From an uncultured virus (IMG/VR IMGVR_UViG_3300010340_000980) (lineage: Duplodnaviria; Heunggongvirae; Uroviricota; Caudoviricetes), in IMG/VR virus record IMGVR_UViG_3300010340_000980: a stretch of 20,000 nucleotides of DNA. One strand, 5' to 3'. The position numbers and the translations under genes were made by a program. A model generated the notes under the pieces. The model made no database searches. It saw only the letters and a program-made list of their open reading frames with translations, and was not told the DNA's origin. Shown here piece by piece: positions 11,595 to 20,000 of this stretch. Within the stretch, counting starts at the first letter, position 1; each line of letters begins with the position of its first letter.

Positions 11595-11795
11595 TTTTAA
11601 CATATCATTGAACTCAATATCAATAACTCCATCCAAATCACTATAAATTTCTCTTAAAACCATCTTTAACCTAACCAATTCATCATCCGAAAACAAACCA
11701 TCATTTAGTTTATTTCCAAAAACAACTTTTGACATACCCATTTTTTGAGCCAATAATGTTTGGTTCAATTTCCATTTTTTAATTACTTCTAACAT
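11583..11795 (-). CDS. small XRE-like helix-turn-helix protein linked to the transposase
   Basis: LNQTLLAQKMGMSKVVFGNKL HTH pattern; start overlaps the transposase end. Confidence 0.7.
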   Translation of the reverse strand: MLEVIKKWKLNQTLLAQKMGMSKVVFGNKLNDGLFSDDELVRLKMVLREIYSDLDGVIDIEFNDMLKSII

Positions 11796-12723
11796 TTTTT
11801 AATTCTTTATAGGTTAAACGATTGTTAATATTATTAAGGACATAATCAAATCTATAACTTTCTGAAAATCCACGAGTATTATATCTAAATACAAATTCAT
11901 CAACATATCTCTGTAAATGTTTCTTACTCATAGAGTGATAAATTCCCATTATTCCTCTTTTCAAAATTGCCCAAAATCCTTCAATTGTATTGGTATGAAT
12001 ATCACCTTTAACATATTCTTTACTATTGTGTTTAACAACATTATGATCAAATATTTTAGATAATCCTTTATATCCCAACCATTCGTCAGTATTTAATGGA
12101 TTTCCAACTTCTAAATTTTCATGTATAAACTTCTTTAAGATTTCACCTGATGTTCCATCTACAACATTTGCTCTTAATTCTCCACCTCTTTGTATAATTC
12201 CAACAACAGGAGTTTTGGTTTTCAAACTTCTACCTTGTGTTCCTTTTGTCTTCTTACTTTGATGTTTATTCTTTTCTTGACCACCAATATAAGTTTCATC
12301 TGCTTCACAAGTTCCTTCTAATTTACCAGTTGGTTGATTATTTAATCCTAAACTATGACGAACTCTATGAAGCATAAACCAAGCAGTTTTTTGTGTAAGT
12401 CCTAAATCTTTGTGTAATTGTAAAGAAGATATACCTTTCTTATGAGAAGTTATAAGATAAATAGCAGCAAACCATTTTTGTAGAGATATTTTACTTCCTT
12501 CAAACATTGTTCCAACTCTTACCGAAAATTGCTTCTTACATTTATCACATTTATAGACTTTACCATTACTATATTTAAAAACTTTATCATGCTTACAATC
12601 TTCATAGGGACAGGTTATATTTCCATTCCATCTAATTTGTTCCAAGTAATCTCTACATACTTGTTCATTATTGAAGTATGTAAAAAGTTGGACTAAATTA
12701 TTGAATTTCTGTAAGATTATCAT
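11779..12723 (-). CDS. IS1595-family DDE transposase
   Basis: Zn ribbon (CPYEDC...CDKC), KKGISSLQL/QKTAWFMLHR HTH, catalytic EADETYIGG, TDEWLGY, HTNTIEGFW, and EFVFRYN. Confidence 0.95.
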   Translation of the reverse strand: MIILQKFNNLVQLFTYFNNEQVCRDYLEQIRWNGNITCPYEDCKHDKVFKYSNGKVYKCDKCKKQFSVRVGTMFEGSKISLQKWFAAIYLITSHKKGISSLQLHKDLGLTQKTAWFMLHRVRHSLGLNNQPTGKLEGTCEADETYIGGQEKNKHQSKKTKGTQGRSLKTKTPVVGIIQRGGELRANVVDGTSGEILKKFIHENLEVGNPLNTDEWLGYKGLSKIFDHNVVKHNSKEYVKGDIHTNTIEGFWAILKRGIMGIYHSMSKKHLQRYVDEFVFRYNTRGFSESYRFDYVLNNINNRLTYKELKNVRSN

Positions 12724-14445: not shown

Positions 14446-14778
14446 TTATATTTTATTTATAGTTGGATATTTAGAATCCAATTCATCAATTACACTGAAA
14501 GGTGATCCACCCACTCCAGAATATTTAATATTTTCAAAACCATTTTCTTCTGTAATCATAGAATCTTTCTCATTGATTGCTCCTGTGAATTTATCAAAAC
14601 CTTTCTTGTTTTCGATTTTACCAGTTGACGGATTATAAGAACCCCAATCAGCAGGTCTATCAGGACCAATAGGTTCTATAAAATAAGTTTTACCAGTTCT
14701 ATACGAATTTACAATAAATCTACCCGTTTCATCACGATTAGTTAAAAAATTCTTCCTAAACTCTAACATATTTTTCAT
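14446..14778 (-). CDS. hypothetical protein
   Basis: 110-aa ORF starting directly downstream of the last tRNA. Confidence 0.8.
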   Translation of the reverse strand: MKNMLEFRKNFLTNRDETGRFIVNSYRTGKTYFIEPIGPDRPADWGSYNPSTGKIENKKGFDKFTGAINEKDSMITEENGFENIKYSGVGGSPFSVIDELDSKYPTINKI

Positions 14779-14799
14779 AATTAATTTTATTTTTTTTAG

Positions 14800-14871
14800 T
14801 AGCGATACCAGGAATCGAACCTGGTCCTCAAGGATATGAGCCGAGTGAGCTTGCCGTTACACCATATCGCC
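14800..14871 (-). tRNA. tRNA-Met(CAT), weak anticodon stem
   Basis: GGCGATA/TATCGCT acceptor, loop CT-CAT-AT, T arm CCAGG-TTCGATT-CCTGG; two mismatches in the anticodon stem; Met versus Ile2 identity unresolved. Confidence 0.7.
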
Positions 14872-14876
14872 ATTTG

Positions 14877-14957
14877 TGCCAAGAGTGGGACTCGAACCCA
14901 CAAACCTTCAGGAACAGAGGTTTGAGCTCTGCGCGTTTACCATTTCACCATCTTGGC
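14877..14957 (-). tRNA. tRNA-Leu(CAA)
   Basis: GCCAAGA/TCTTGGC; CAGAG-CTCAAAC-CTCTG; variable arm. Confidence 0.92.
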
Positions 14958-14962
14958 ATTTG

Positions 14963-15034
14963 TTCCAATGACCAGAGTTGAACTGGTGTCTCACCGATAC
15001 CAACGGTGTGTAATTGCCGTTATACGACATTGGA
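14963..15034 (-). tRNA. tRNA-Thr(GGT)
   Basis: TCCAATG/CATTGGA; CACCG-TTGGTAT-CGGTG. Confidence 0.88.
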
Positions 15035-15039
15035 ATTTG

Positions 15040-15113
15040 TAGTCCTGACCGGGTTCGAACCGATGACCTCTTGGATGTCGACCAAGCGCTCTAACCATCT
15101 GAGCTACAGGACT
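15040..15113 (-). tRNA. tRNA-Val(GAC)
   Basis: AGTCCTG/CAGGACT; CTTGG-TCGACAT-CCAAG (C at position 33). Confidence 0.9.
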
Positions 15114-15116
15114 ATT

Positions 15117-15830
15117 TTAATAACTTTTTCCTTCTTTATATCTTTCTCTTCTTTTATGTCTTCCTTTTCCTCTATTTAATGCTTTATATGTTGGTGTTAA
15201 TGAGTGGCAATTTGGACATAATAACTCAAGATTATCAAGATTATTATTTTCTGAATTACCATCTATATGTTCAAGTTCTATTGGAACTTTATTTGTTATA
15301 GGATTTTTCTCACACCATCCACACCTCATACATTTTTCACCATATATCTCAATTAGAAATCTTTTAGCCATTTTTGAACCATGATTTACACCATTTCTAA
15401 TTTCATCAAATTTAATTTTTCTTTCCAGATTTCTTTGACATTTTATAGAACAGTATTTTCTTTTTAAGAACATATAATTTCTATCAATTTCATATTCCGA
15501 ATTACAGCTTTCACAAATTCGAAATATTTTCTTATCTTTTTCTATCAGAGAATTATCTTTGTTTATTTTTTCATCACTTTCTTTTAGATTTAGAAAAGTT
15601 CTCGAACAGCTCATTGAACAAAACTTTCTTTCTTCACTTATTAGACAATCAAATTCTTTATTACATTGTGAACATATCTTTTTCTCTCTTTTTAATTCAT
15701 TATATTTTGATTTTAATTTATATTTTGATTTTATTCTAACAACCGAAGATCTCGAAATATTCAAAATGTCCGCGATTTCATTATTAGTCAATCCTTGATC
15801 CAATAGATTTTCTAAAATTTGAATTTTCAT
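15117..15830 (-). CDS. free-standing HNH homing endonuclease with N-terminal HTH and Cys zinc fingers
   Basis: GLTNNEIADILNISRSSV HTH; CxxC...CSxxC repeats; ELEHIDGNSENNNLDNLELLCPNCHS; TAATATATA at 15856-15848. Confidence 0.9.
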   Translation of the reverse strand: MKIQILENLLDQGLTNNEIADILNISRSSVVRIKSKYKLKSKYNELKREKKICSQCNKEFDCLISEERKFCSMSCSRTFLNLKESDEKINKDNSLIEKDKKIFRICESCNSEYEIDRNYMFLKRKYCSIKCQRNLERKIKFDEIRNGVNHGSKMAKRFLIEIYGEKCMRCGWCEKNPITNKVPIELEHIDGNSENNNLDNLELLCPNCHSLTPTYKALNRGKGRHKRRERYKEGKSY

Positions 15831-15882
15831 ATTTTAATTTTTTATTTTATATATTAAAAATATGAGCCTCCCGTCAAAATAG

Positions 15883-15963
15883 AGCCAAGAGCCGGATTCG
15901 AACCGGCGATGTTTGTGTTCCTCATTACAAGTGAGGTGGAGTCAACCGCTGTCCCATCTTGGC
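15883..15963 (-). tRNA. tRNA-Thr(TGT) with 12-nt variable region
   Basis: GCCAAGA/TCTTGGC; CCTCA-CTTGTAA-TGAGG; GCCGG-TTCGAAT-CCGGC. Confidence 0.85.
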
Positions 15964-15967
15964 GTTA

Positions 15968-16080
15968 ATGGAGGAAAGTTCTAAAAGTGGTTTATACTGA
16001 GGGATTTGAACCCTCTTTTATTGTGTTTAAGACAATTGTGTTAACCATTTCACGAAGTAACACTTTTAATTACCATCCAT
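15968..16080 (-). ncRNA. stem-closed ncRNA with embedded tRNA-like cloverleaf (TAA loop); Y-RNA-like candidate
   Basis: Outer stems ATGGA/TCCAT and TAAAAGTG/CACTTTTA enclose D-, anticodon- and T-like arms; 5' motif shared with 16340-16420. Confidence 0.6.
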
Positions 16081-16083
16081 TTG

Positions 16084-16166
16084 AGGTACTAACTGGATTC
16101 GAACCAGTGTGAGTGGTTTTGCAGACCACTGCCTTCCGTCTTATGACACCACTCGGCCATAGTACC
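16084..16166 (-). tRNA. tRNA-Cys(GCA) with enlarged D loop
   Basis: GGTACTA/TAGTACC, U73; GTGGT-CTGCAAA-ACCAC; D loop holds an extra GTC-ATAA-GAC hairpin. Confidence 0.85.
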
Positions 16167-16172
16167 TTGTTG

Positions 16173-16247
16173 TTGGAATAGTAGGATTTGAACCTACGAC
16201 ATTTCGCGTATCAGGCGAACGCTCTCACCAGGCTGAGCTATATTCCA
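16173..16247 (-). tRNA. tRNA-Ile(GAT)
   Basis: TGGAATA/TATTCCA; TTCGC-CTGATAC-GCGAA. Confidence 0.92.
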
Positions 16248-16252
16248 ATTTG

Positions 16253-16336
16253 TAGGTCCACCCGGATTCGAACCGGGGTTAACTTCTCGTCTCCACTTTG
16301 TAAGAGTGGGATGTTTTACCACTACACCATGGACCT
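16253..16336 (-). tRNA. tRNA-Val(TAC) with 15-nt variable region
   Basis: AGGTCCA/TGGACCT; CCACT-CTTACAA-AGTGG; CCCGG-TTCGAAT-CCGGG. Confidence 0.85.
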
Positions 16337-16339
16337 ATT

Positions 16340-16420
16340 AAGGAAAGAAAACCTTAGAAGAGTATATTTTGAGCAAATATTAAAAATCAGCGAAGTAACT
16401 CTTTCTAATTACCATTCCTT
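16340..16420 (-). ncRNA. second, shorter stem-closed ncRNA of the same family
   Basis: AAGGAATGGTAATTAGAAAGAGTTACTTCG...ACTCTTCTAAGGTTTTCTTTCCTT; stems covary with 15968-16080. Confidence 0.55.
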
Positions 16421-16423
16421 TTG

Positions 16424-16504
16424 TCGGCGTGACTGGGATTGAACCAGCATTTTCACTTACCAATTACCCGTAGCAATCTTATCAGGATTGAGGGTTACAC
16501 GCCG
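16424..16504 (-). tRNA. atypical tRNA-like gene, anticodon GAT (Ile), rearranged D region
   Basis: CGGCGTG/CACGCCG acceptor; CAATC-CTGATAA-GATTG arm only 7 nt after it; TAATTGG element 3' of the anticodon arm; T arm GCTGG-TTCAATC-CCAGT. Confidence 0.7.
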
Positions 16505-16530
16505 TTTTGTTCCAACTGGAACACTTTTTG

Positions 16531-16603
16531 CGGGTCAGGTGGGTAACGATCCCACTCTCCTCGGTTTAACAGACCGCCGCTGTACCATACTAGCTTCTGA
16601 CCC
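16531..16603 (-). tRNA. tRNA-Asn(GTT)
   Basis: GGGTCAG/CTGACCC, G73; CGGT-CTGTTAA-ACCG; atypical T loop ATCGTTA. Confidence 0.82.
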
Positions 16604-16617
16604 TTGTATTCTTTTTG

Positions 16618-16704
16618 AGGACAGGGTGGGATTCGAACCCACGATGGAACTTTCATTCACCAGATTAACAGTCTGGACTTTTCGGCCACTAAAGCAACCC
16701 ATCC
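16618..16704 (-). tRNA. tRNA with Asn anticodon (GTT) and type II long variable arm
   Basis: GGATGGG/CCTGTCC, U73; CCAGA-CTGTTAA-TCTGG; GAAT-GAAA-GTTC variable arm. Confidence 0.82.
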
Positions 16705-16709
16705 TTTTG

Positions 16710-16782
16710 TAGCCCCTGCGGGATTCGAACCCACATTCTCGCTTTAGAAGAGCGATGTCCTGTCCAGTTGGACGAAGGAGCC
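16710..16782 (-). tRNA. tRNA-Arg(TCT)
   Basis: GGCTCCT/AGGGGCT; TCGCT-CTTCTAA-AGCGA. Confidence 0.92.
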
Positions 16783-16837
16783 ATATTTGGGTTTTTACAA
16801 TACCTTTCGGATATTTTCAGTCCCAACTCTGTTTTTG

Positions 16838-16926
16838 TACACTAGAAGGGATTCGAACCCCCATTTGATACTATCGCATCTCCAATTACGTATAAGGAGG
16901 TAGAAGCTCCCCTCGGATACTAGTGC
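16838..16926 (-). tRNA. atypical tRNA-like gene, anticodon TCT (Arg), rearranged D region
   Basis: GCACTAG/CTAGTGT acceptor; GGGAG-CTTCTAC-CTCCT; TAATTGG element after the anticodon arm; GGGGG-TTCGAAT-CCCTT. Confidence 0.7.
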
Positions 16927-16989
16927 ATTTTTATTTTTTAACGGGTTTAAGTTTCACAACTAAACCCGACCAGGATTAATTCCTGTTAG

Positions 16990-17077
16990 TGCCTCAGGTG
17001 GGACTCGAACCCACAACGTTTTCCACAAGGGTATTAGTTTCTAAAACTAATGCGTTTCACCGTTTCGCCACTGAGGC
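16990..17077 (-). tRNA. tRNA-Leu(TAG)
   Basis: GCCTCAG/CTGAGGC; TTAGT-TTTAGAA-ACTAA; long variable region. Confidence 0.9.
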
Positions 17078-17086
17078 ATTTATTCG

Positions 17087-17169
17087 TACCCAAGGAGAGA
17101 CTCGAACTCTCACGTCCTTTCAGACACCGGCTTCTTAGACCGGGGTGTCTACCATTCCACCACCTGGGC
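17087..17169 (-). tRNA. tRNA-Leu(AAG)
   Basis: GCCCAGG/CTTGGGT; CCGGT-CTAAGAA-GCCGG; GTC-TGAAAG-GAC variable arm. Confidence 0.9.
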
Positions 17170-17215
17170 ATTACCATTTCGCATTTTAAGAGTGCGATAT
17201 GTCACCTTCTCTTTG

Positions 17216-17290
17216 TACTCCCCATCGGATTCGAACCGATACCTGTACAGGGTTTAAGTCTGTTGCCTCTGCCGATTGGGCTACGGGAGC
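17216..17290 (-). tRNA. tRNA-Leu(TAA) lacking a long variable arm
   Basis: GCTCCC/GGGAGT acceptor (G-G at pair 7); loop CTTAAAC; ATCGG-TTCGAAT-CCGAT. Confidence 0.82.
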
Positions 17291-17300
17291 ATTTATTATA

Positions 17301-17432
17301 CTATATTACAATATTCCATCCTATTGACATTTCTATAATTGATTTCGCCATTGGAAAACATCTTTTTATTTCTTCCTTTTTCATTCCATTTACTTGACAG
17401 AATGCCCTTCCATTTATCATTATAATTTTCAT
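17301..17432 (-). CDS. small hypothetical protein (43 aa, MKIIMINGRAFCQ...GWNIVI)
   Basis: Hand-translated; A-rich leader; exactly fills the space between the attenuator and the first tRNA. Confidence 0.55.
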   Translation of the reverse strand: MKIIMINGRAFCQVNGMKKEEIKRCFPMAKSIIEMSIGWNIVI

Positions 17433-17462
17433 CTTTATTTTTTTTAATATTGTTTTTAAAAT

Positions 17463-17496
17463 AAAAAAACCCGAACTTCTTTCGATGTTCGGGTTT
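17463..17496 (-). terminator. intrinsic terminator of the leader (attenuator)
   Basis: AAACCCGAAC-ATCGAAAGAA-GTTCGGG followed by a T7 tract on the minus strand. Confidence 0.88.
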
Positions 17497-17517
17497 GTAT
17501 TATTTGGAGTTATTACT

Positions 17518-17628
17518 TCACCTTAAGATGAATCCAAATTTTGCACAACCCGAACCAACGGTTCTAATACATAACGTATTATTCACCATTGTGAGATTCA
17601 AATTGATATTTAGATTCATTGTTTTCAT
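17518..17628 (-). CDS. attenuator leader peptide, 36 aa (MKTMNLNINLNLTMVNNTLCIRTVGSGCAKFGFILR)
   Basis: ATG 17628 to TGA 17518; ends 21 nt before the terminator; contains GTTCGGGTT complementary to the terminator 5' arm; codons mirror the downstream anticodons. Confidence 0.8.
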   Translation of the reverse strand: MKTMNLNINLNLTMVNNTLCIRTVGSGCAKFGFILR

Positions 17629-17635
17629 TATTTCT

Positions 17636-17644
17636 TATATATTA
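17636..17644 (-). promoter_or_regulatory. TAATATATA phage promoter-like motif upstream of the leader
   Basis: Same motif precedes at least eight gene starts in this window. Confidence 0.6.
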
Positions 17645-17675
17645 AAAAGTTTATGTCCCTTTTGATTTTGTTTTA

Positions 17676-17707
17676 CAAATATAAGGTGGATTTTTTATCC
17701 CACCAAA
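17676..17707 (-). promoter_or_regulatory. Bacteroidetes-type primary-sigma promoter (TTTG-N20-TATATTTG)
   Basis: Matches the -33 TTTG / -7 TAnnTTTG consensus and spacing. Confidence 0.7.
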
Positions 17708-17751
17708 TATTTTGTTTTTTAAATCTTTATGTGTTTGTTTTTATTGTATTA

Positions 17752-17782
17752 CAAATATACAATAAAGTTTTAAATTTCCAAA
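17752..17782 (-). promoter_or_regulatory. second Bacteroidetes-type promoter (TTTG-N19-TATATTTG)
   Basis: Same consensus, in tandem with the first. Confidence 0.7.
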
Positions 17783-17783
17783 T

Positions 17784-18010
17784 TTATTTTAAATTTTCAA
17801 AGAAATCAGATAACTCCTTTATTAATTTTTCATTGTTTTTAACTATATCATCTGATTCCGGACTATTATAATTAATTGGGTTATCAAAATTTAAGTTTGT
17901 GTTAAAACCCTTTTTTTGACCCAATTTAACATATCAGATAAGGCCCAAAAAACTTCATCAGGTGTGTCACTTCCCCAAGAGTGTAGTAATGTTAAGAAAA
18001 ATTTATTCAT
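17784..18010 (-). pseudogene. ~75-aa hypothetical gene with a 1-nt frameshift in an A7 run
   Basis: MNKFFLTLLHSWGSDTPDEVFWALSDMLNWVKK continues in the -1 frame as KGFNTNLNFDNP...FFENLK*; homopolymer at 17911-17917. Confidence 0.55.
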
Positions 18011-18027
18011 CTTTATAACTATTTAGT

Positions 18028-18450
18028 TTATACTACTTCTAAAACTTCAATGTCAAAAATCAAAGTTTGACCAGCTAATGGGTGATTAGCATCAACGATA
18101 ATATTATCATCATTAACTTCACGAACCATAAATGTCACCATTTCACCATTTTGCATATTTGCTTGAAGAGATTGACCAACTTGTACGCCTTGTGGCGCAT
18201 TAGTTTTTGGAACAGTAACTCTCAATTCATCTCTATATTCACCATAAGCTTCAATAGCAGGAATTTCAATAGTTTTTTTATCACCAGCAGAAAGACCTAG
18301 AATACCATTCTCAAAACCTGGGATTAGTGATCCTTCACCAATAACGAACTCAATTGGTTCTCTACCATCTTTCAATGAAGAATCAAACTCTTCATTATTT
18401 GTTAAACGACCAGTATAATGGGCTTTAACTTTACTACCTTCTTTAATCAT
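18028..18450 (-). CDS. FKBP-type peptidyl-prolyl isomerase (SlyD/SlpA-like, no His-rich tail)
   Basis: VKAHYTGRL...FDSS...GREPIEFVIGEGSLIPGFE...AYGE...VDANHPLAGQTLIFDIEV. Confidence 0.93.
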   Translation of the reverse strand: MIKEGSKVKAHYTGRLTNNEEFDSSLKDGREPIEFVIGEGSLIPGFENGILGLSAGDKKTIEIPAIEAYGEYRDELRVTVPKTNAPQGVQVGQSLQANMQNGEMVTFMVREVNDDNIIVDANHPLAGQTLIFDIEVLEVV

Positions 18451-19358: not shown

Positions 19359-20000
19359 TTAAAAAACTGGACTTTTAATTTTTACATCTTCACCATATAC
19401 AATTACACCAACTTTATTCTCAATAGTTGAGAGTGGTGGAAATTCTACTCGGTCAATAACCCATCTTTCAATTAGTAGATCTGGATTGAGTCTTGCTTGG
19501 TGTTTAGCTGGAAGTCTTTCAAGTTCTGAAGAACTAAACTTAGTAACAACTCGCTTTCTTTGAATATAACTACCTCTCTTAAAAAAAGATGGATAATCAT
19601 TCCAATTTACACCTTTTTGGAAAAGAAGTTCTTGTTTTTCAGAACCATTCTTACCCATAAGAAAATTATGTGAGTAGTATTCAGAAGCAGCCATTGTAAT
19701 AGAGTTCTTGGTTGCATCTTTCTCTCTCCAATAGAAAGTATTCACAGCTTCATCTACATTTGGAACATTCCAAACTCGACAGTCAAATCTTGGCATTTTA
19801 TCTTTCTTTTCTGGAAGATATTCAGCAAGTTTAGAATTGAAGAATACAGAACCCATTGAAGATAGATCTGAAATCATTTTGAAAAGTCTACCATCAAAAT
19901 AGATTTTTGATTCATGAGTATCAGAGTACCACATAAGAGTAATTTCATCACTTTGAGTGTAACCACAGTTAGCATTAGTCTCTTTTACAAGATACTTTGT
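19359..20000 (-). CDS. Thg1-like tRNA(His) guanylyltransferase / 3'-5' polymerase, 5'-partial
   Basis: Frame open to the window edge: GYTQSDEITL, FDGRLFK, FDCRV, WREKDATKNSI, GVNWNDYPSFFKRG. Confidence 0.92.
   Translation of the reverse strand, partial: TKYLVKETNANCGYTQSDEITLMWYSDTHESKIYFDGRLFKMISDLSSMGSVFFNSKLAEYLPEKKDKMPRFDCRVWNVPNVDEAVNTFYWREKDATKNSITMAASEYYSHNFLMGKNGSEKQELLFQKGVNWNDYPSFFKRGSYIQRKRVVTKFSSSELERLPAKHQARLNPDLLIERWVIDRVEFPPLSTIENKVGVIVYGEDVKIKSPVF

Follow-up and report, generated by a model that had tools for sequence, protein, structure and literature searches.

The region upstream of the tRNA array in the window (the whole stretch of 20,000 nucleotides that was analysed) is very probably a ribosome-mediated, or leader-peptide, transcription attenuator that gates the tRNA array of a huge phage. 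The attenuator reading rests on the conservation of a short open reading frame (ORF), on an antiterminator partner which lies inside this ORF and co-varies with the terminator, and, in two relatives, on leaders composed of the amino acids of their own arrays. Since an ORF matched to the array lies inside a switchable stop signal, the phage probably makes its tRNA set when its codons are decoded slowly by ribosomes. The core of an earlier, sequence-only reading, which had proposed a translated leader matching the tRNAs behind a conditional terminator, was supported by every comparative test that was run.

The tRNA array and the sensor codons of the leader

The array and the leader ORF comprise the following features.

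14799..17290, minus strand: tRNA array, 15 genes (ARAGORN): Leu x5, Asn x2, Thr x2, Val x2, Ile, Arg, Cys, Met
15117..15830, minus strand: HTH and HNH endonuclease-like ORF, 237 amino acids, inserted in the array (HTH_23 6.4e-6, HNH 1.6e-3, both weak)
16838..16926: weak tRNA-like match (Rfam, 30.7 bits, gathering score 29)
17301..17432, minus strand: 43-codon ORF between terminator and first tRNA, without a Pfam match and missing from most relatives
17518..17628, minus strand: leader ORF, 36 codons and TGA; MKTMNLNINLNLTMVNNTLCIRTVGSGCAKFGFILR
17557..17622, minus strand: sensor codons 3-24, 22 in a row that the array anticodons can read

ARAGORN confirms the 13 distinct anticodons for eight amino acids (CAT, CAA, GGT, GAC, TGT, TAA twice, GCA, GAT, TAC, GTT twice, TCT, TAG and AAG), while the tRNA-Leu genes, which had been counted as four, are actually five genes with four anticodons. 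The 237-residue ORF has blastn matches to annotated phage homing/HNH endonucleases.

The 36-codon ORF is present on the minus strand with its codons exactly as the sequence-only reading had listed them. Its readability was evaluated under assumed wobble rules in which G34 reads C or U, U34 reads A or G, C34 reads G and A34 is inosine, the modification states of the tRNAs (A34 to inosine; CAT as Met or as Ile) being likewise assumed. Under these rules the array reads 23 of the first 24 codons, which reproduces the earlier count, and 27 of all 36; across the 14 stop-to-stop frames of at least 150 codons in the window, 4197 codons in all, background readability is 38.1%, against which the binomial probability of 23 or more of codons 1-24 is 3.6e-9. 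The 22-codon readable run that begins at 17622 is the sole run of 13 or more in the six frames of the window, and it is also longer than in shuffled sequence, where the maximum in 200 shuffles of the window was 16.

Codons 3-22, which end in AGA and are the counterpart of the family's conserved sensor part, specify only Thr, Met, Asn, Leu, Ile, Val, Cys and Arg (as AGA). All 13 anticodons are sampled by the window ORF, but GGT and GAC are sampled solely by codons 23-24 (ACC GTT), which lie beyond the conserved sensor part, so that the claim that every anticodon is sampled holds for the window and not for the family, in whose leaders GTT/GTC and ACT/ACC (anticodons GAC and GGT) are almost absent.

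TTTG-N19-21-TAnnTTTG is the promoter form of Bacteroidetes, and two candidate sites precede the leader.

17752..17782, minus strand: candidate upstream promoter-like site, TTTG (17782-17779), 19 nt, TATATTTG (17759-17752)
17676..17707, minus strand: candidate proximal promoter-like site, TTTG (17707-17704), 20 nt, TATATTTG (17683-17676)
17629..17675, minus strand: 5' untranslated leader, with A/T-rich stretch CTTTTTAATATATAAGAAATA ahead of the ATG

The proximal arrangement, whose spacer contains a hairpin (GGTGGGAT..ATCCACC, 17704-17685), occurs at the same position in LR756502, LR745206 and the IMG/VR relatives. The A/T-rich stretch is kept in a three-way alignment and also precedes the other module types of LR745206.

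Conservation of the leader in related phages

The leader precedes the tRNA arrays of LR756502 and LR745206 and was found at 7 IMG/VR and 82 metagenome loci, giving 49 distinct leader peptides and 64 distinct leader+terminator sequences in related huge-phage DNA; as these sequences are related to one another, the numbers do not represent independent events. All 64 versions have the same ORF, with ATG and frame kept and length differences of whole codons, and the same restricted composition: the window's array reads 1425 of the 1456 codons in their sensor parts, and 24 of the 31 unreadable codons are AAA (Lys), which aligned leaders have at position 2. After AGA the composition of the tail is unrestricted. 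The tRNAs downstream are almost all for Leu, Asn, Thr, Val, Ile, Arg, Met or Cys (775 of 782), and of the 77 loci whose sequence continues for 200 nt or more past the terminator, 65 have the start of a same-strand tRNA no more than 60 nt from it and 76 no more than 300 nt; in the window, as in two other loci (L045 and L050), the distance to the first tRNA is 173 nt. The match between codons and array is not due to chance. Two contigs from RNA libraries overlap the leader, but contigs of this sort cannot show transcription.

Alternative RNA structures

The terminator that had been claimed between the leader ORF and the array is present, and it forms part of a set of competing segments.

17585..17619, minus strand: segment 1, a stretch of sensor codons with predicted pairing to segment A and the nucleotides after it (MFE fold)
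17565..17581, minus strand: candidate pause hairpin P1 at the tip, TAATAC-GTTAT-GTATTA, codons 16-22
17547..17555, minus strand: segment A (GTTCGGGTT), codons 25-28, copy of the terminator 3' strand; its pairing with B is the putative antiterminator
17487..17496, minus strand: segment B (AAACCCGAAC), terminator 5' strand, common to both alternative helices
17463..17476, minus strand: segment C (GTTCGGGTTT) and T run, terminator 3' strand

The window terminator (stem AAACCCGAAC/GTTCGGGTTT, 10-nt loop, 7 T) was reported by a purpose-made finder and missed by the consensus scan, whose loop limit is 8. RNAalifold predicts 11 terminator pairs over the 64 sequences, 4 of them with compensatory changes. 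The P1 stem is kept in all 64 leaders in three main forms, which include a compensatory A-T to T-A swap (AATATTAC/GTAATATT in 21, AATAATAC/GTATTATT in 7).

Segments A and B can form at least 9 contiguous pairs in 52 of 64 leaders, with A at codons ~23-29 in those, whereas a helix that long is formed by 3 of 1280 shuffles and, when B is taken from another class, by 1 of 320 pairings. A, B and C share one core in 44 of 64 leaders, and this core exists in four versions (CTGA, GTTC, ATCT and GTCT); the antiterminator partner inside the ORF changes together with the terminator. The MFE fold of the window leader makes segment 1 a candidate anti-antiterminator in a long hairpin, and pairing between segment A and the sensor codons is found in 53 of 63 relatives, compared to 271 of 1260 codon-order shuffles (21.5%). 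The computed energies favour the terminator state by a median of 5.6 kcal/mol when no ribosome is present (antiterminator favoured in 0 of 62), and placing a ribosome 4-16 codons upstream of A brings terminator and antiterminator close to parity (median -1.2 to +0.6). Because the terminator is never clearly disfavoured at equilibrium, the model requires kinetic control, which is assumed.

Leaders of other tRNA arrays

Two relatives, LR745206 and G001, bear several leader modules for other tRNA arrays or synthetase genes. Those of LR745206 are as follows.

..HKNFSKSHKWF.., before His/Phe/Trp
KTKLKYK, before 4 tRNA-Lys (found by eye; hairpin without a T run)
SKSSSRSSS (Arg as CGN), before Arg(ACG)/Ser
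YESYYEE, before Glu/Tyr
ISIAVIGNGAGAI (Ile as ATA), before Ile(TAT)/Gly/Ala and GlyRS- and AlaRS-like genes
PVNPQPQDQDP, before Pro/Asp
QQIQQQQ, before 3 tRNA-Gln and GlnRS
NNRNR, before AsnRS and an ArgRS-like gene

The module-wise pattern is repeated in G001, where the Glu/Tyr and Ile/Gly/Ala arrays are fused and served by one fused leader, IYIGYIAEGGYEAG. Leader codons follow array content across modules: among 362,880, among 40,320 and among 720 permutations, no assignment of leaders to arrays does as well as the true one. Synthetase genes also agree with the leader of their own module (Asn/Arg-like, Gly/Ala, Gln, Pro and Lys/Trp). In G001 one leader, G001_a, agrees with its own set only at background level (2 of 16), and the A:B helix in the other module types is short, at 5-8 pairs.

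The matching extends in part to codon choice. Arg is AGA in 90 of 91 cases in window-type leaders (tRNA-Arg TCT) and CGN in Ser/Arg leaders (tRNA-Arg ACG/GCG), while Ile is ATA in the leaders of Ile(TAT) arrays and only 3% ATA in window-type leaders, compared to 44% in genes. The leaders also make frequent use of codons ending in G that phage genes seldom contain (GTG 96% vs 3%, ACG 29% vs 2%). The one-to-one indexing of isoacceptors proposed in the sequence-only reading is not conserved, however: within the family, the presence of Leu, Thr, Val and Ile codon types does not track that of the matching anticodons (Fisher tests: CTC/CTT vs AAG/GAG, p = 0.70; TTG vs CAA, p = 1; 29 distinct leader/array combinations from 39 loci), a comparison weakened in either direction because ARAGORN misses some tRNAs.

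Proposed mechanism

In the proposed model, the transcript would begin at a host-type promoter with the 36-codon ORF, and the RNA would have four interacting segments: 1 (sensor codons), A (codons 25-28), B, and C with the U run. In the absence of a ribosome, 1:A and B:C would form and transcription would stop; a ribosome running through would cover A while B and C were being made, so that B:C would again form and stop transcription. A ribosome stalled on a sensor codon would instead mask segment 1 and leave A free to pair with B before C exists, and RNA polymerase would read through into the tRNA genes. That the ORF is translated, that ribosomes stall on it and that read-through responds are predictions from the sequence, and the shortage that causes stalling may arise from a codon-usage mismatch with the host, host shut-off or a tRNA-targeting defence; in the last case the array may serve, as the sequence-only reading proposed, in counter-defence against anticodon nucleases. 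If the model is correct, it constitutes a feedback loop in which poor decoding of a codon set raises exactly the tRNAs that read that set and, in relatives, the matching aminoacyl-tRNA synthetases.

Alternative explanations

The switch anatomy described above would answer any slowing of the leading ribosome, and it is conceivable, but improbable, that the element is a translation-coupled general attenuator which responds to how fast or how available ribosomes are in general, for instance after host shut-off, with the codon match as a by-product. The lack of conserved isoacceptor-level matching fits such a sensor, and the rare G-ending codons might be slow ones of a generic kind or be imposed by RNA pairing. 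A general sensor would nonetheless have no reason to use each module's own amino acids, and the leaders differ sharply between modules, neither the 40,320 nor the 720 permutations improve on the true assignment, the Arg and Ile codon boxes follow the module's anticodons, and synthetase genes match their leaders. Strong nucleotide-level conservation of the P1 block in a structured leader could point to an untranslated RNA, either a riboswitch- or T-box-like leader that binds tRNA or another ligand or a signal for tRNA-precursor processing. This is less likely still: the conserved ATG and open frame in DNA of 28% G+C, the whole-codon indels and the synonymous Leu and Asn changes all point to translation, and the match spans about 20 in-frame triplets instead of one specifier. 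No Rfam family except tRNA reaches its own gathering score at E <= 1 in the window, and there is therefore no T-box and no known leader family.

The conserved reading frame would also be expected of a small functional peptide with the hairpin merely as its terminator and the tRNA array transcribed from elsewhere. A sigma-70-like site found by consensus scan (17447-17419) and the 43-codon ORF both lie 3' of the terminator in the window, before the first tRNA, so some transcription could begin behind the attenuator. This explanation is very unlikely, because the first half of the peptide keeps only its composition and codon choice and the tail varies freely, because the terminator and its partner inside the ORF vary together, and because leaders of the same layout but with unrelated peptides stand before other arrays and follow what these contain; the first tRNA within 60 nt of the terminator in most loci leaves no room for a promoter there. 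Chance resemblance in AT-rich sequence would be favoured by the fact that the ORF and the 24-codon cut-off were picked after the data had been seen, but it is rejected as extremely unlikely on the basis of the run statistics of the window, the readability of the family's sensor codons, the tRNA positions and the module permutations, with 64 distinct conserved versions and replication in other module types. The leader-peptide attenuator is accordingly the preferred explanation.

Comparison with known systems

Phage tRNA arrays are viewed as an adaptation of codon usage or as replacing tRNAs lost to shut-off or anticodon nucleases. The tRNAs and synthetases of these huge phages, the same kind of cargo in the same genomes or relatives, have been reported, in a main text in which attenuation, leaders and terminators each have 0 occurrences (Al-Shayeb et al. 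2020). A literature search found no description of such control of tRNA genes. It is the regulation of phage tRNA arrays that is new; the logic is known for amino-acid synthesis genes.

T-box riboswitches switch a terminator and antiterminator upstream of synthetase and amino-acid genes; they are untranslated and bind uncharged tRNA directly via one specifier codon. The phage element is likewise a candidate sensor of the state of specific tRNAs that switches terminator and antiterminator, but it has an ORF with about 20 matched codons and no T-box match in Rfam. The pheST attenuator (pheM leader) controls phenylalanyl-tRNA synthetase in E. coli, so that in E. coli, as proposed for the phages, part of the decoding apparatus is governed by a leader with cognate codons; NNRNR before AsnRS and QQIQQQQ before tRNA-Gln and GlnRS are of this type, although tRNA genes are the first and main cargo in the phages and the window's module has no synthetase.

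Enterobacterial attenuators of amino-acid operons include the thr leader (Thr and Ile) and the ilvGMEDA leader (Ile, Leu and Val), as well as trp, his, leu and pheA. Like the phage element, they have a short ORF (in the phage predicted to be translated) in which regulatory codons for more than one amino acid are frequent. In both, the 5' strand of an intrinsic terminator can pair alternatively with a segment upstream of it, a second upstream pairing, in the phage a predicted one, makes transcription terminate when the ORF is not translated, and a hairpin stands at the place of the pause hairpin; the enterobacterial leaders have no sequence similarity to the phage leader (no Rfam leader family matched). 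They differ in that the genes regulated here are tRNAs, with synthetases in relatives, and not biosynthetic enzymes, so that the product would act directly on the signal, and in that the element is phage-encoded, samples eight amino acids in the window, and occurs in one genome as a set of leaders, one per tRNA block.

Codon match between the leader and the tRNA array

The arrangement of the candidate attenuator region in the window, which has a G+C content of 28%, is as follows, all features lying on the minus strand.

Layout of the leader, terminator and array
Upstream of the leader ORF (-): two promoter-like sites, TTTG-N19/20-TATATTTG
Between these sites and the leader ORF (-): A/T-rich untranslated stretch
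17628-17518 (-): leader ORF, 36 codons
Leader ORF to terminator (-): spacer, 21 nt
17496-17463 (-): terminator, AAACCCGAAC-10 nt-GTTCGGGTTT then seven T; G+C-rich stem of 10 bp
17301-17432 (-): 43-codon ORF of no family, between the terminator and the first tRNA
17290-14799 (-): 15 tRNA genes with 13 different anticodons (ARAGORN)

All 15 tRNAs are confirmed by Rfam. Five of the genes are for Leu and two each for Asn, Thr and Val, the others being for Ile, Arg, Cys and Met, and the array is interrupted by an HTH/HNH endonuclease-like ORF. The terminator was missed by a scan for consensus promoters and terminators because of the loop limit of that scan.

The sequence-only reading held that nearly all of the first 24 leader codons can be decoded by the tRNAs of the array, and the calculation bears this out. 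When readability is defined by standard wobble, with A34 taken as inosine, 23 codons are readable by the window array; these rules cover 23 of the first 24 leader codons and 27 of all 36, compared to a background of 38.1% for the 4197 codons in the 14 long open frames of the window (P = 3.6e-9 for 23/24). Since the ORF and the cut-off had been freely chosen by the earlier reader, a six-frame scan was run to offset that choice. The 22 consecutive readable codons beginning at 17622 form the only run of at least 13 in any frame, and the longest readable run in 200 shuffles of the window did not exceed 16, so that the match also surpasses what shuffled sequence produces. The codon match is real and far beyond chance.

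Two gaps in the array hold sequences that resemble tRNAs. The stretch 16838-16926 (-) gives a weak match to the Rfam tRNA model (30.7 bits) and is called by ARAGORN at a low threshold only, with an odd anticodon loop, while at ~16420-16500 (-) a T-arm and acceptor-like pairing can be seen by eye and neither ARAGORN nor Rfam calls a tRNA; both may be decayed or unusual tRNAs. Running ARAGORN with introns and low thresholds added calls outside the array, which were discarded as spurious. Just upstream of the candidate attenuator are a Thg1-like ORF (tRNA-His guanylyltransferase family; 19359-19934, -) and an ORF for an FKBP-type peptidyl-prolyl isomerase (18028-18450, -), and because these adjoin the attenuator the neighbourhood appears devoted to translation. 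A 314-aa ORF at 11779-12723 (-) carries IS1595-family DDE transposase and zinc-ribbon domains (Pfam 2.3e-45 and 1.7e-9), which identify it by sequence as an insertion sequence within phage-like DNA.

Conservation of the leader and the array

The part of the window that holds the promoter and the first 22 codons (17715-17563) is ~79% identical to stretches of two related uncultured huge phages, LR756502 (642 kb) and LR745206 (635 kb), found by blastn of phage records, and in both genomes the matching stretch lies immediately 5' of a tRNA array. Alignment of the three sequences shows that the ORF is retained, with whole-codon gaps and synonymous changes at Leu and Asn codons, and that the terminator stem is altered on both strands (CCCGAAC/GTTCGGG versus CCCTCAG/CTGAGGG); a third copy of the terminator 3' strand, located within the ORF, covaries with the stem.

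Pattern scans extended the family to 7 loci in IMG/VR and 82 in metagenome contigs. A looser DNA pattern gave 10 loci, three of which (L011, L012 and L019) were chance matches and were removed, and it gained nothing else. After exclusion of the 10 loci that are cut by a contig end, the 92 pattern loci yielded 49 distinct peptides and 64 distinct leader-plus-terminator sequences. The expectation that the leader would be conserved in related phages is upheld: the start (ATG-A(A/C/G)A or ATG-GAA) and the frame are kept in all 64 versions, and the indels are whole codons. In the “sensor” part, from codon 2 to a conserved AGA, 1425 of 1456 codons across the family are readable by the window array, and AAA (Lys), which aligned leaders carry at position 2, accounts for 24 of the 31 that are unreadable. 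The tail 3' of the AGA is unrestricted in composition (Phe, Ser, Gly, Val, Glu, Lys etc.).

Among the 77 loci that extend 200 nt or more past the terminator, 65 have a same-strand tRNA start within 60 nt of it and 76 have one within 300 nt. Among the tRNAs counted within 3 kb, 775 of 782 are specific for Leu, Asn, Thr, Val, Ile, Arg, Met or Cys, and the amino acid alphabets of leader and array therefore coincide family-wide. The 43-codon ORF produces a gap of 173 nt between terminator and tRNA in the window and also in L045 and L050, two contigs with an identical leader. It looks like an insertion, because relatives mostly have a close tRNA and because a contig from an RNA library skips the stretch, running from the leader end across the terminator to the first tRNA of a relative that has no such ORF.

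The proposed terminator/antiterminator switch

A transcription attenuator requires mutually exclusive RNA structures. Segment A (17555-17547, codons 25-28), which lies inside the ORF, is complementary to the terminator 5' strand, B, and would thus compete with the 3' strand, C. An A:B helix of at least 9 contiguous pairs is present in 52 of the 64 leaders, at codons ~23-29 in those 52; shuffling the upstream part gave a helix this long 3 times in 1280, and substituting a B strand from another sequence class did so in 1 of 320 trials. In 44 of 64 leaders, A, B and C share the four bases beside the GGG/CCC core, and these bases occur in four versions (CTGA in 32, GTTC in 9, ATCT in 2, GTCT in 1); most of the remaining leaders differ by one or two bases, in A alone. 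RNAalifold, applied to a MAFFT alignment, recovered the terminator alone (11 pairs, 4 of them with compensatory changes in 13-21 sequences). Since that alignment does not keep A and B in register across sequence classes, A:B pairing was counted with a dedicated script.

A further hairpin, P1 (17581-17565, loop GTTAT), is present in 64 of 64 leaders. Its 8-bp forms, AATATTAC/GTAATATT in 21 leaders and AATAATAC/GTATTATT in 7, are related by a compensatory swap which also trades Asn and Ile codons. When the transcript preceding B is folded, A is predicted to pair with the sensor codons (segment 1) in a long hairpin tipped by P1 in 53 of 63 leaders, compared to 271 of 1260 (21.5%) codon-order shuffles of the sensor part. 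This predicted arrangement of segments is the four-segment layout of classical attenuators.

The energies of the two states were computed on the RNA 3' of a stalled ribosome only; equilibrium energies that allowed pairing across the bound ribosome gave mixed signs and were replaced by this folding. In ribosome-free RNA the terminator state has a median advantage of 5.6 kcal/mol, and the antiterminator is favoured in none of 62 leaders. When a ribosome is placed with its A site 4-16 codons 5' of A, the difference between the states nearly vanishes (median -1.2 to +0.6). A:B would then win kinetically, by forming before C exists, and P1 would act as a pause hairpin.

Isoacceptor indexing and leader codon choice

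The sequence-only reading went beyond amino acids and proposed that individual leader codons index individual isoacceptors one to one. This stronger claim is not supported within the family, where no association between leader codons and anticodons is seen among 29 distinct leader/array combinations (39 loci; ARAGORN may miss genes). A tRNA-Leu(AAG/GAG) is detected for 7 of 16 leaders that contain CTC or CTT and for 4 of 13 that do not, and TTG codons are equally flat against the CAA anticodon over the 29 combinations. The related claim that every anticodon is sampled is true of the window, where GAC and GGT are sampled by codons 23-24 only, in a local stem outside the conserved sensor, but it does not carry over to the family leaders, in which the codons of tRNA-Val(GAC) and tRNA-Thr(GGT) are nearly absent (GTT+GTC 2%, ACT+ACC 2%).

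The leaders have marked codon preferences compared to genes: GTG supplies 96% of Val codons (3% in genes), ACG 29% of Thr codons (2%), and CTG+CTC 34% of Leu codons (3%), while ATA supplies 3% of Ile codons (44%). The preferred G-ending codons (GTG, ACG, CTG), which hardly ever occur in the phage's genes, may be slow and hence sensitive ones, or they may be imposed by RNA pairing. The avoidance of ATA fits a modular logic, since tRNA-Ile(TAT) belongs to another module.

Other modules in LR745206 and G001

LR745206 contains 61 tRNA matches in several arrays. When its fetched stretches were searched with a terminator-plus-small-ORF finder, strong terminators were found almost only behind small ORFs that precede tRNA blocks. 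The same finder, run on the minus strand only, gave one leader/terminator unit of this kind in the window. A second, diverged genome, G001 (508 kb, 68 tRNA matches), has the same scheme.

Leaders and blocks of the other modules
LR745206, MTTNSTHKNFSKSHKWFSNQSF..: before tRNA-His, Phe, His, Phe, Trp
LR745206, MKTKLKYKR (spotted by eye; hairpin without a T run): before four tRNA-Lys
LR745206, MKTINNTSKSSSRSSSMSEIRLYS, Arg as CGC/CGA: before tRNA-Arg(ACG) and tRNA-Ser
LR745206, ..SYESYYEEG..: before Glu and Tyr tRNAs
LR745206, ..ISIAVIGNGAGAI.., Ile as ATA: before tRNA-Ile(TAT), Gly, Ala and GlyRS-like and AlaRS-like genes
LR745206, ..APVNPQPQDQDP..: before Pro and Asp tRNAs
LR745206, MTTTQQIQQQQINQTD: before three tRNA-Gln and a GlnRS gene
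LR745206, MKTMTINNRNRLTDII: before an AsnRS gene (NCBIfam equivalog, exceeding its cut-off) and an ArgRS-like gene (weak match)
G001, ProRS gene: inside the Asp/Glu/Pro block
G001, LysRS-like and TrpRS-like genes: inside the His/Lys/Trp/Phe block
G001, Ser/Arg(CGN) leader: before Ser and Arg(GCG, ACG) tRNAs
G001, ..IYIGYIAEGGYEAG.., one leader: Glu/Tyr and Gly/Ile(TAT)/Ala tRNAs joined in a single array

Co-variation of leader and array, the test that had been proposed beforehand, was evaluated by scoring each leader against the codon set of each module and permuting the assignments. For the nine LR745206 modules, no other of the 362,880 permutations scores as well as the true assignment. With the sensor part objectively delimited, which was done for eight modules, the true pairing is the best of 40,320, and a leader's own set is the best for 7 of 8. 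In G001 the true pairing is the best of 720, and the own set is the best for 5 of 6 leaders. Leader and array thus co-vary in their amino acids and codon boxes.

Some of the LR745206 modules are nested (L102 1381-3300; L104 1204-2621; L002 3048-8207). The first leader of a run of several blocks also holds codons of blocks further downstream, such as K and S in the His/Phe/Trp leader, Q in the Pro/Asp leader, and N and R before the AsnRS/ArgRS-like unit, and the later blocks each have their own leader too, which suggests hierarchical gating along one transcript. A motif, AAAGGGA..CTTTTTAATATATA, which lies between promoter and ATG in the window (17629-17675, -), is common to different LR745206 module types (L102 ~1330-1380, L104 ~1150-1203, L103 ~1310-1370) and also immediately precedes a tRNA-Met lacking a leader ORF; its role may be that of a second, perhaps phage-specific, promoter or of a shared 5' element. 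Two tRNAs of G001 called by ARAGORN have the anticodons TTA and CTA, which would read the stops TAA and TAG (L107:1121, L110:1031), and one stop-reading tRNA is located in the His/Lys/Trp/Phe module; they may serve stop-codon suppression or recoding. In the Glu/Tyr block of LR745206, a 124-nt Rfam tRNA match without an ARAGORN call (L103:2025-2148) may represent a tRNA interrupted by an intervening sequence.

RNA libraries, known leader families and literature

The window stretch occurs as DNA in public runs of several metagenome types. Two RNA libraries each contain one short contig over the leader, and such contigs, which cannot show transcription, its ends or its strand, weigh on neither side of the attenuator reading. 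One, X17, spans 17513-17658 at ~93% identity; the other RNA-library contig, X18, fuses 17212-17290 to 17513-17547 with 61 other letters between them. In 14500-18100, cmscan at E <= 1 gave no match to the T-box model or to Rfam leader families (His, Leu, Thr, Trp etc.); only tRNA reaches its gathering score, and other models are far below theirs. A full-text search of a limited paper collection found no published description of attenuators before tRNA genes. Passages of the huge-phage paper by Al-Shayeb et al. (2020) mention tRNAs and synthetases and five genomes of >634 kb predicted to replicate in Bacteroidetes, and a term search of its main text gave 0 occurrences of “attenuat-”, “leader” and “terminator”.

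Discussion

Phage tRNA genes are usually treated as cargo only, and, to our knowledge, little has been established about the mode and timing of their expression. The window contains a short ORF with a start codon in a 5' leader, enriched in cognate codons; an intrinsic terminator between this ORF and the tRNA genes; and an alternative helix that uses the terminator 5' strand and excludes the terminator. As judged from sequence, the best explanation of these features is a leader-peptide transcription attenuator through which production of a tRNA set would depend on how its own codons are decoded, and the window element is best explained as belonging to a series of such modules that huge phages carry.

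It is probable, in our estimation, that the translation toolkit of these huge phages of Bacteroidetes-type hosts, including the window element, is organized into amino acid-specific regulons, each of which gauges and tops up its own codon set and provides an automatic response to defence. A regulon would consist of a tRNA block and matching aminoacyl-tRNA synthetases behind a codon-matched leader and terminator switch of its own, and the window element would be the Asn/Leu/Thr/Val/Ile/Arg/Met/Cys member. The phage would gauge the decoding capacity of the infected cell for each codon set and top up only those that are scarce, and the regulons would double as an automatic answer to depletion of host tRNAs or to their cleavage by defence nucleases.

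If this is true, these would be the first tRNA genes described, as far as the literature search shows, whose expression responds to the decoding of the codons that they read, and the codon-matched attenuator would form a direct supply-and-demand loop for translation capacity. Such attenuation would explain the sorting of arrays by amino acid, and it offers a testable handle on the dozens of tRNAs and synthetases of huge phages, whether these serve codon mismatch, host shut-off or anti-defence. It would also mean that short ORFs overlooked by gene callers in front of tRNA arrays can have a function, and the leaders could provide compact, orthogonal, amino acid-specific sensors for Bacteroidetes-type hosts.

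The closest known systems are the multivalent thr and ilv attenuators, whose working is the one proposed for the window element, and the features of that family which can be examined in silico, a leader ORF with cognate codons, an intrinsic terminator and an antiterminator helix, are present here. The differences from them lie in the target, which is tRNA genes, in the phage setting and in the modular, genome-wide use, all of which are new as far as was found in the literature.
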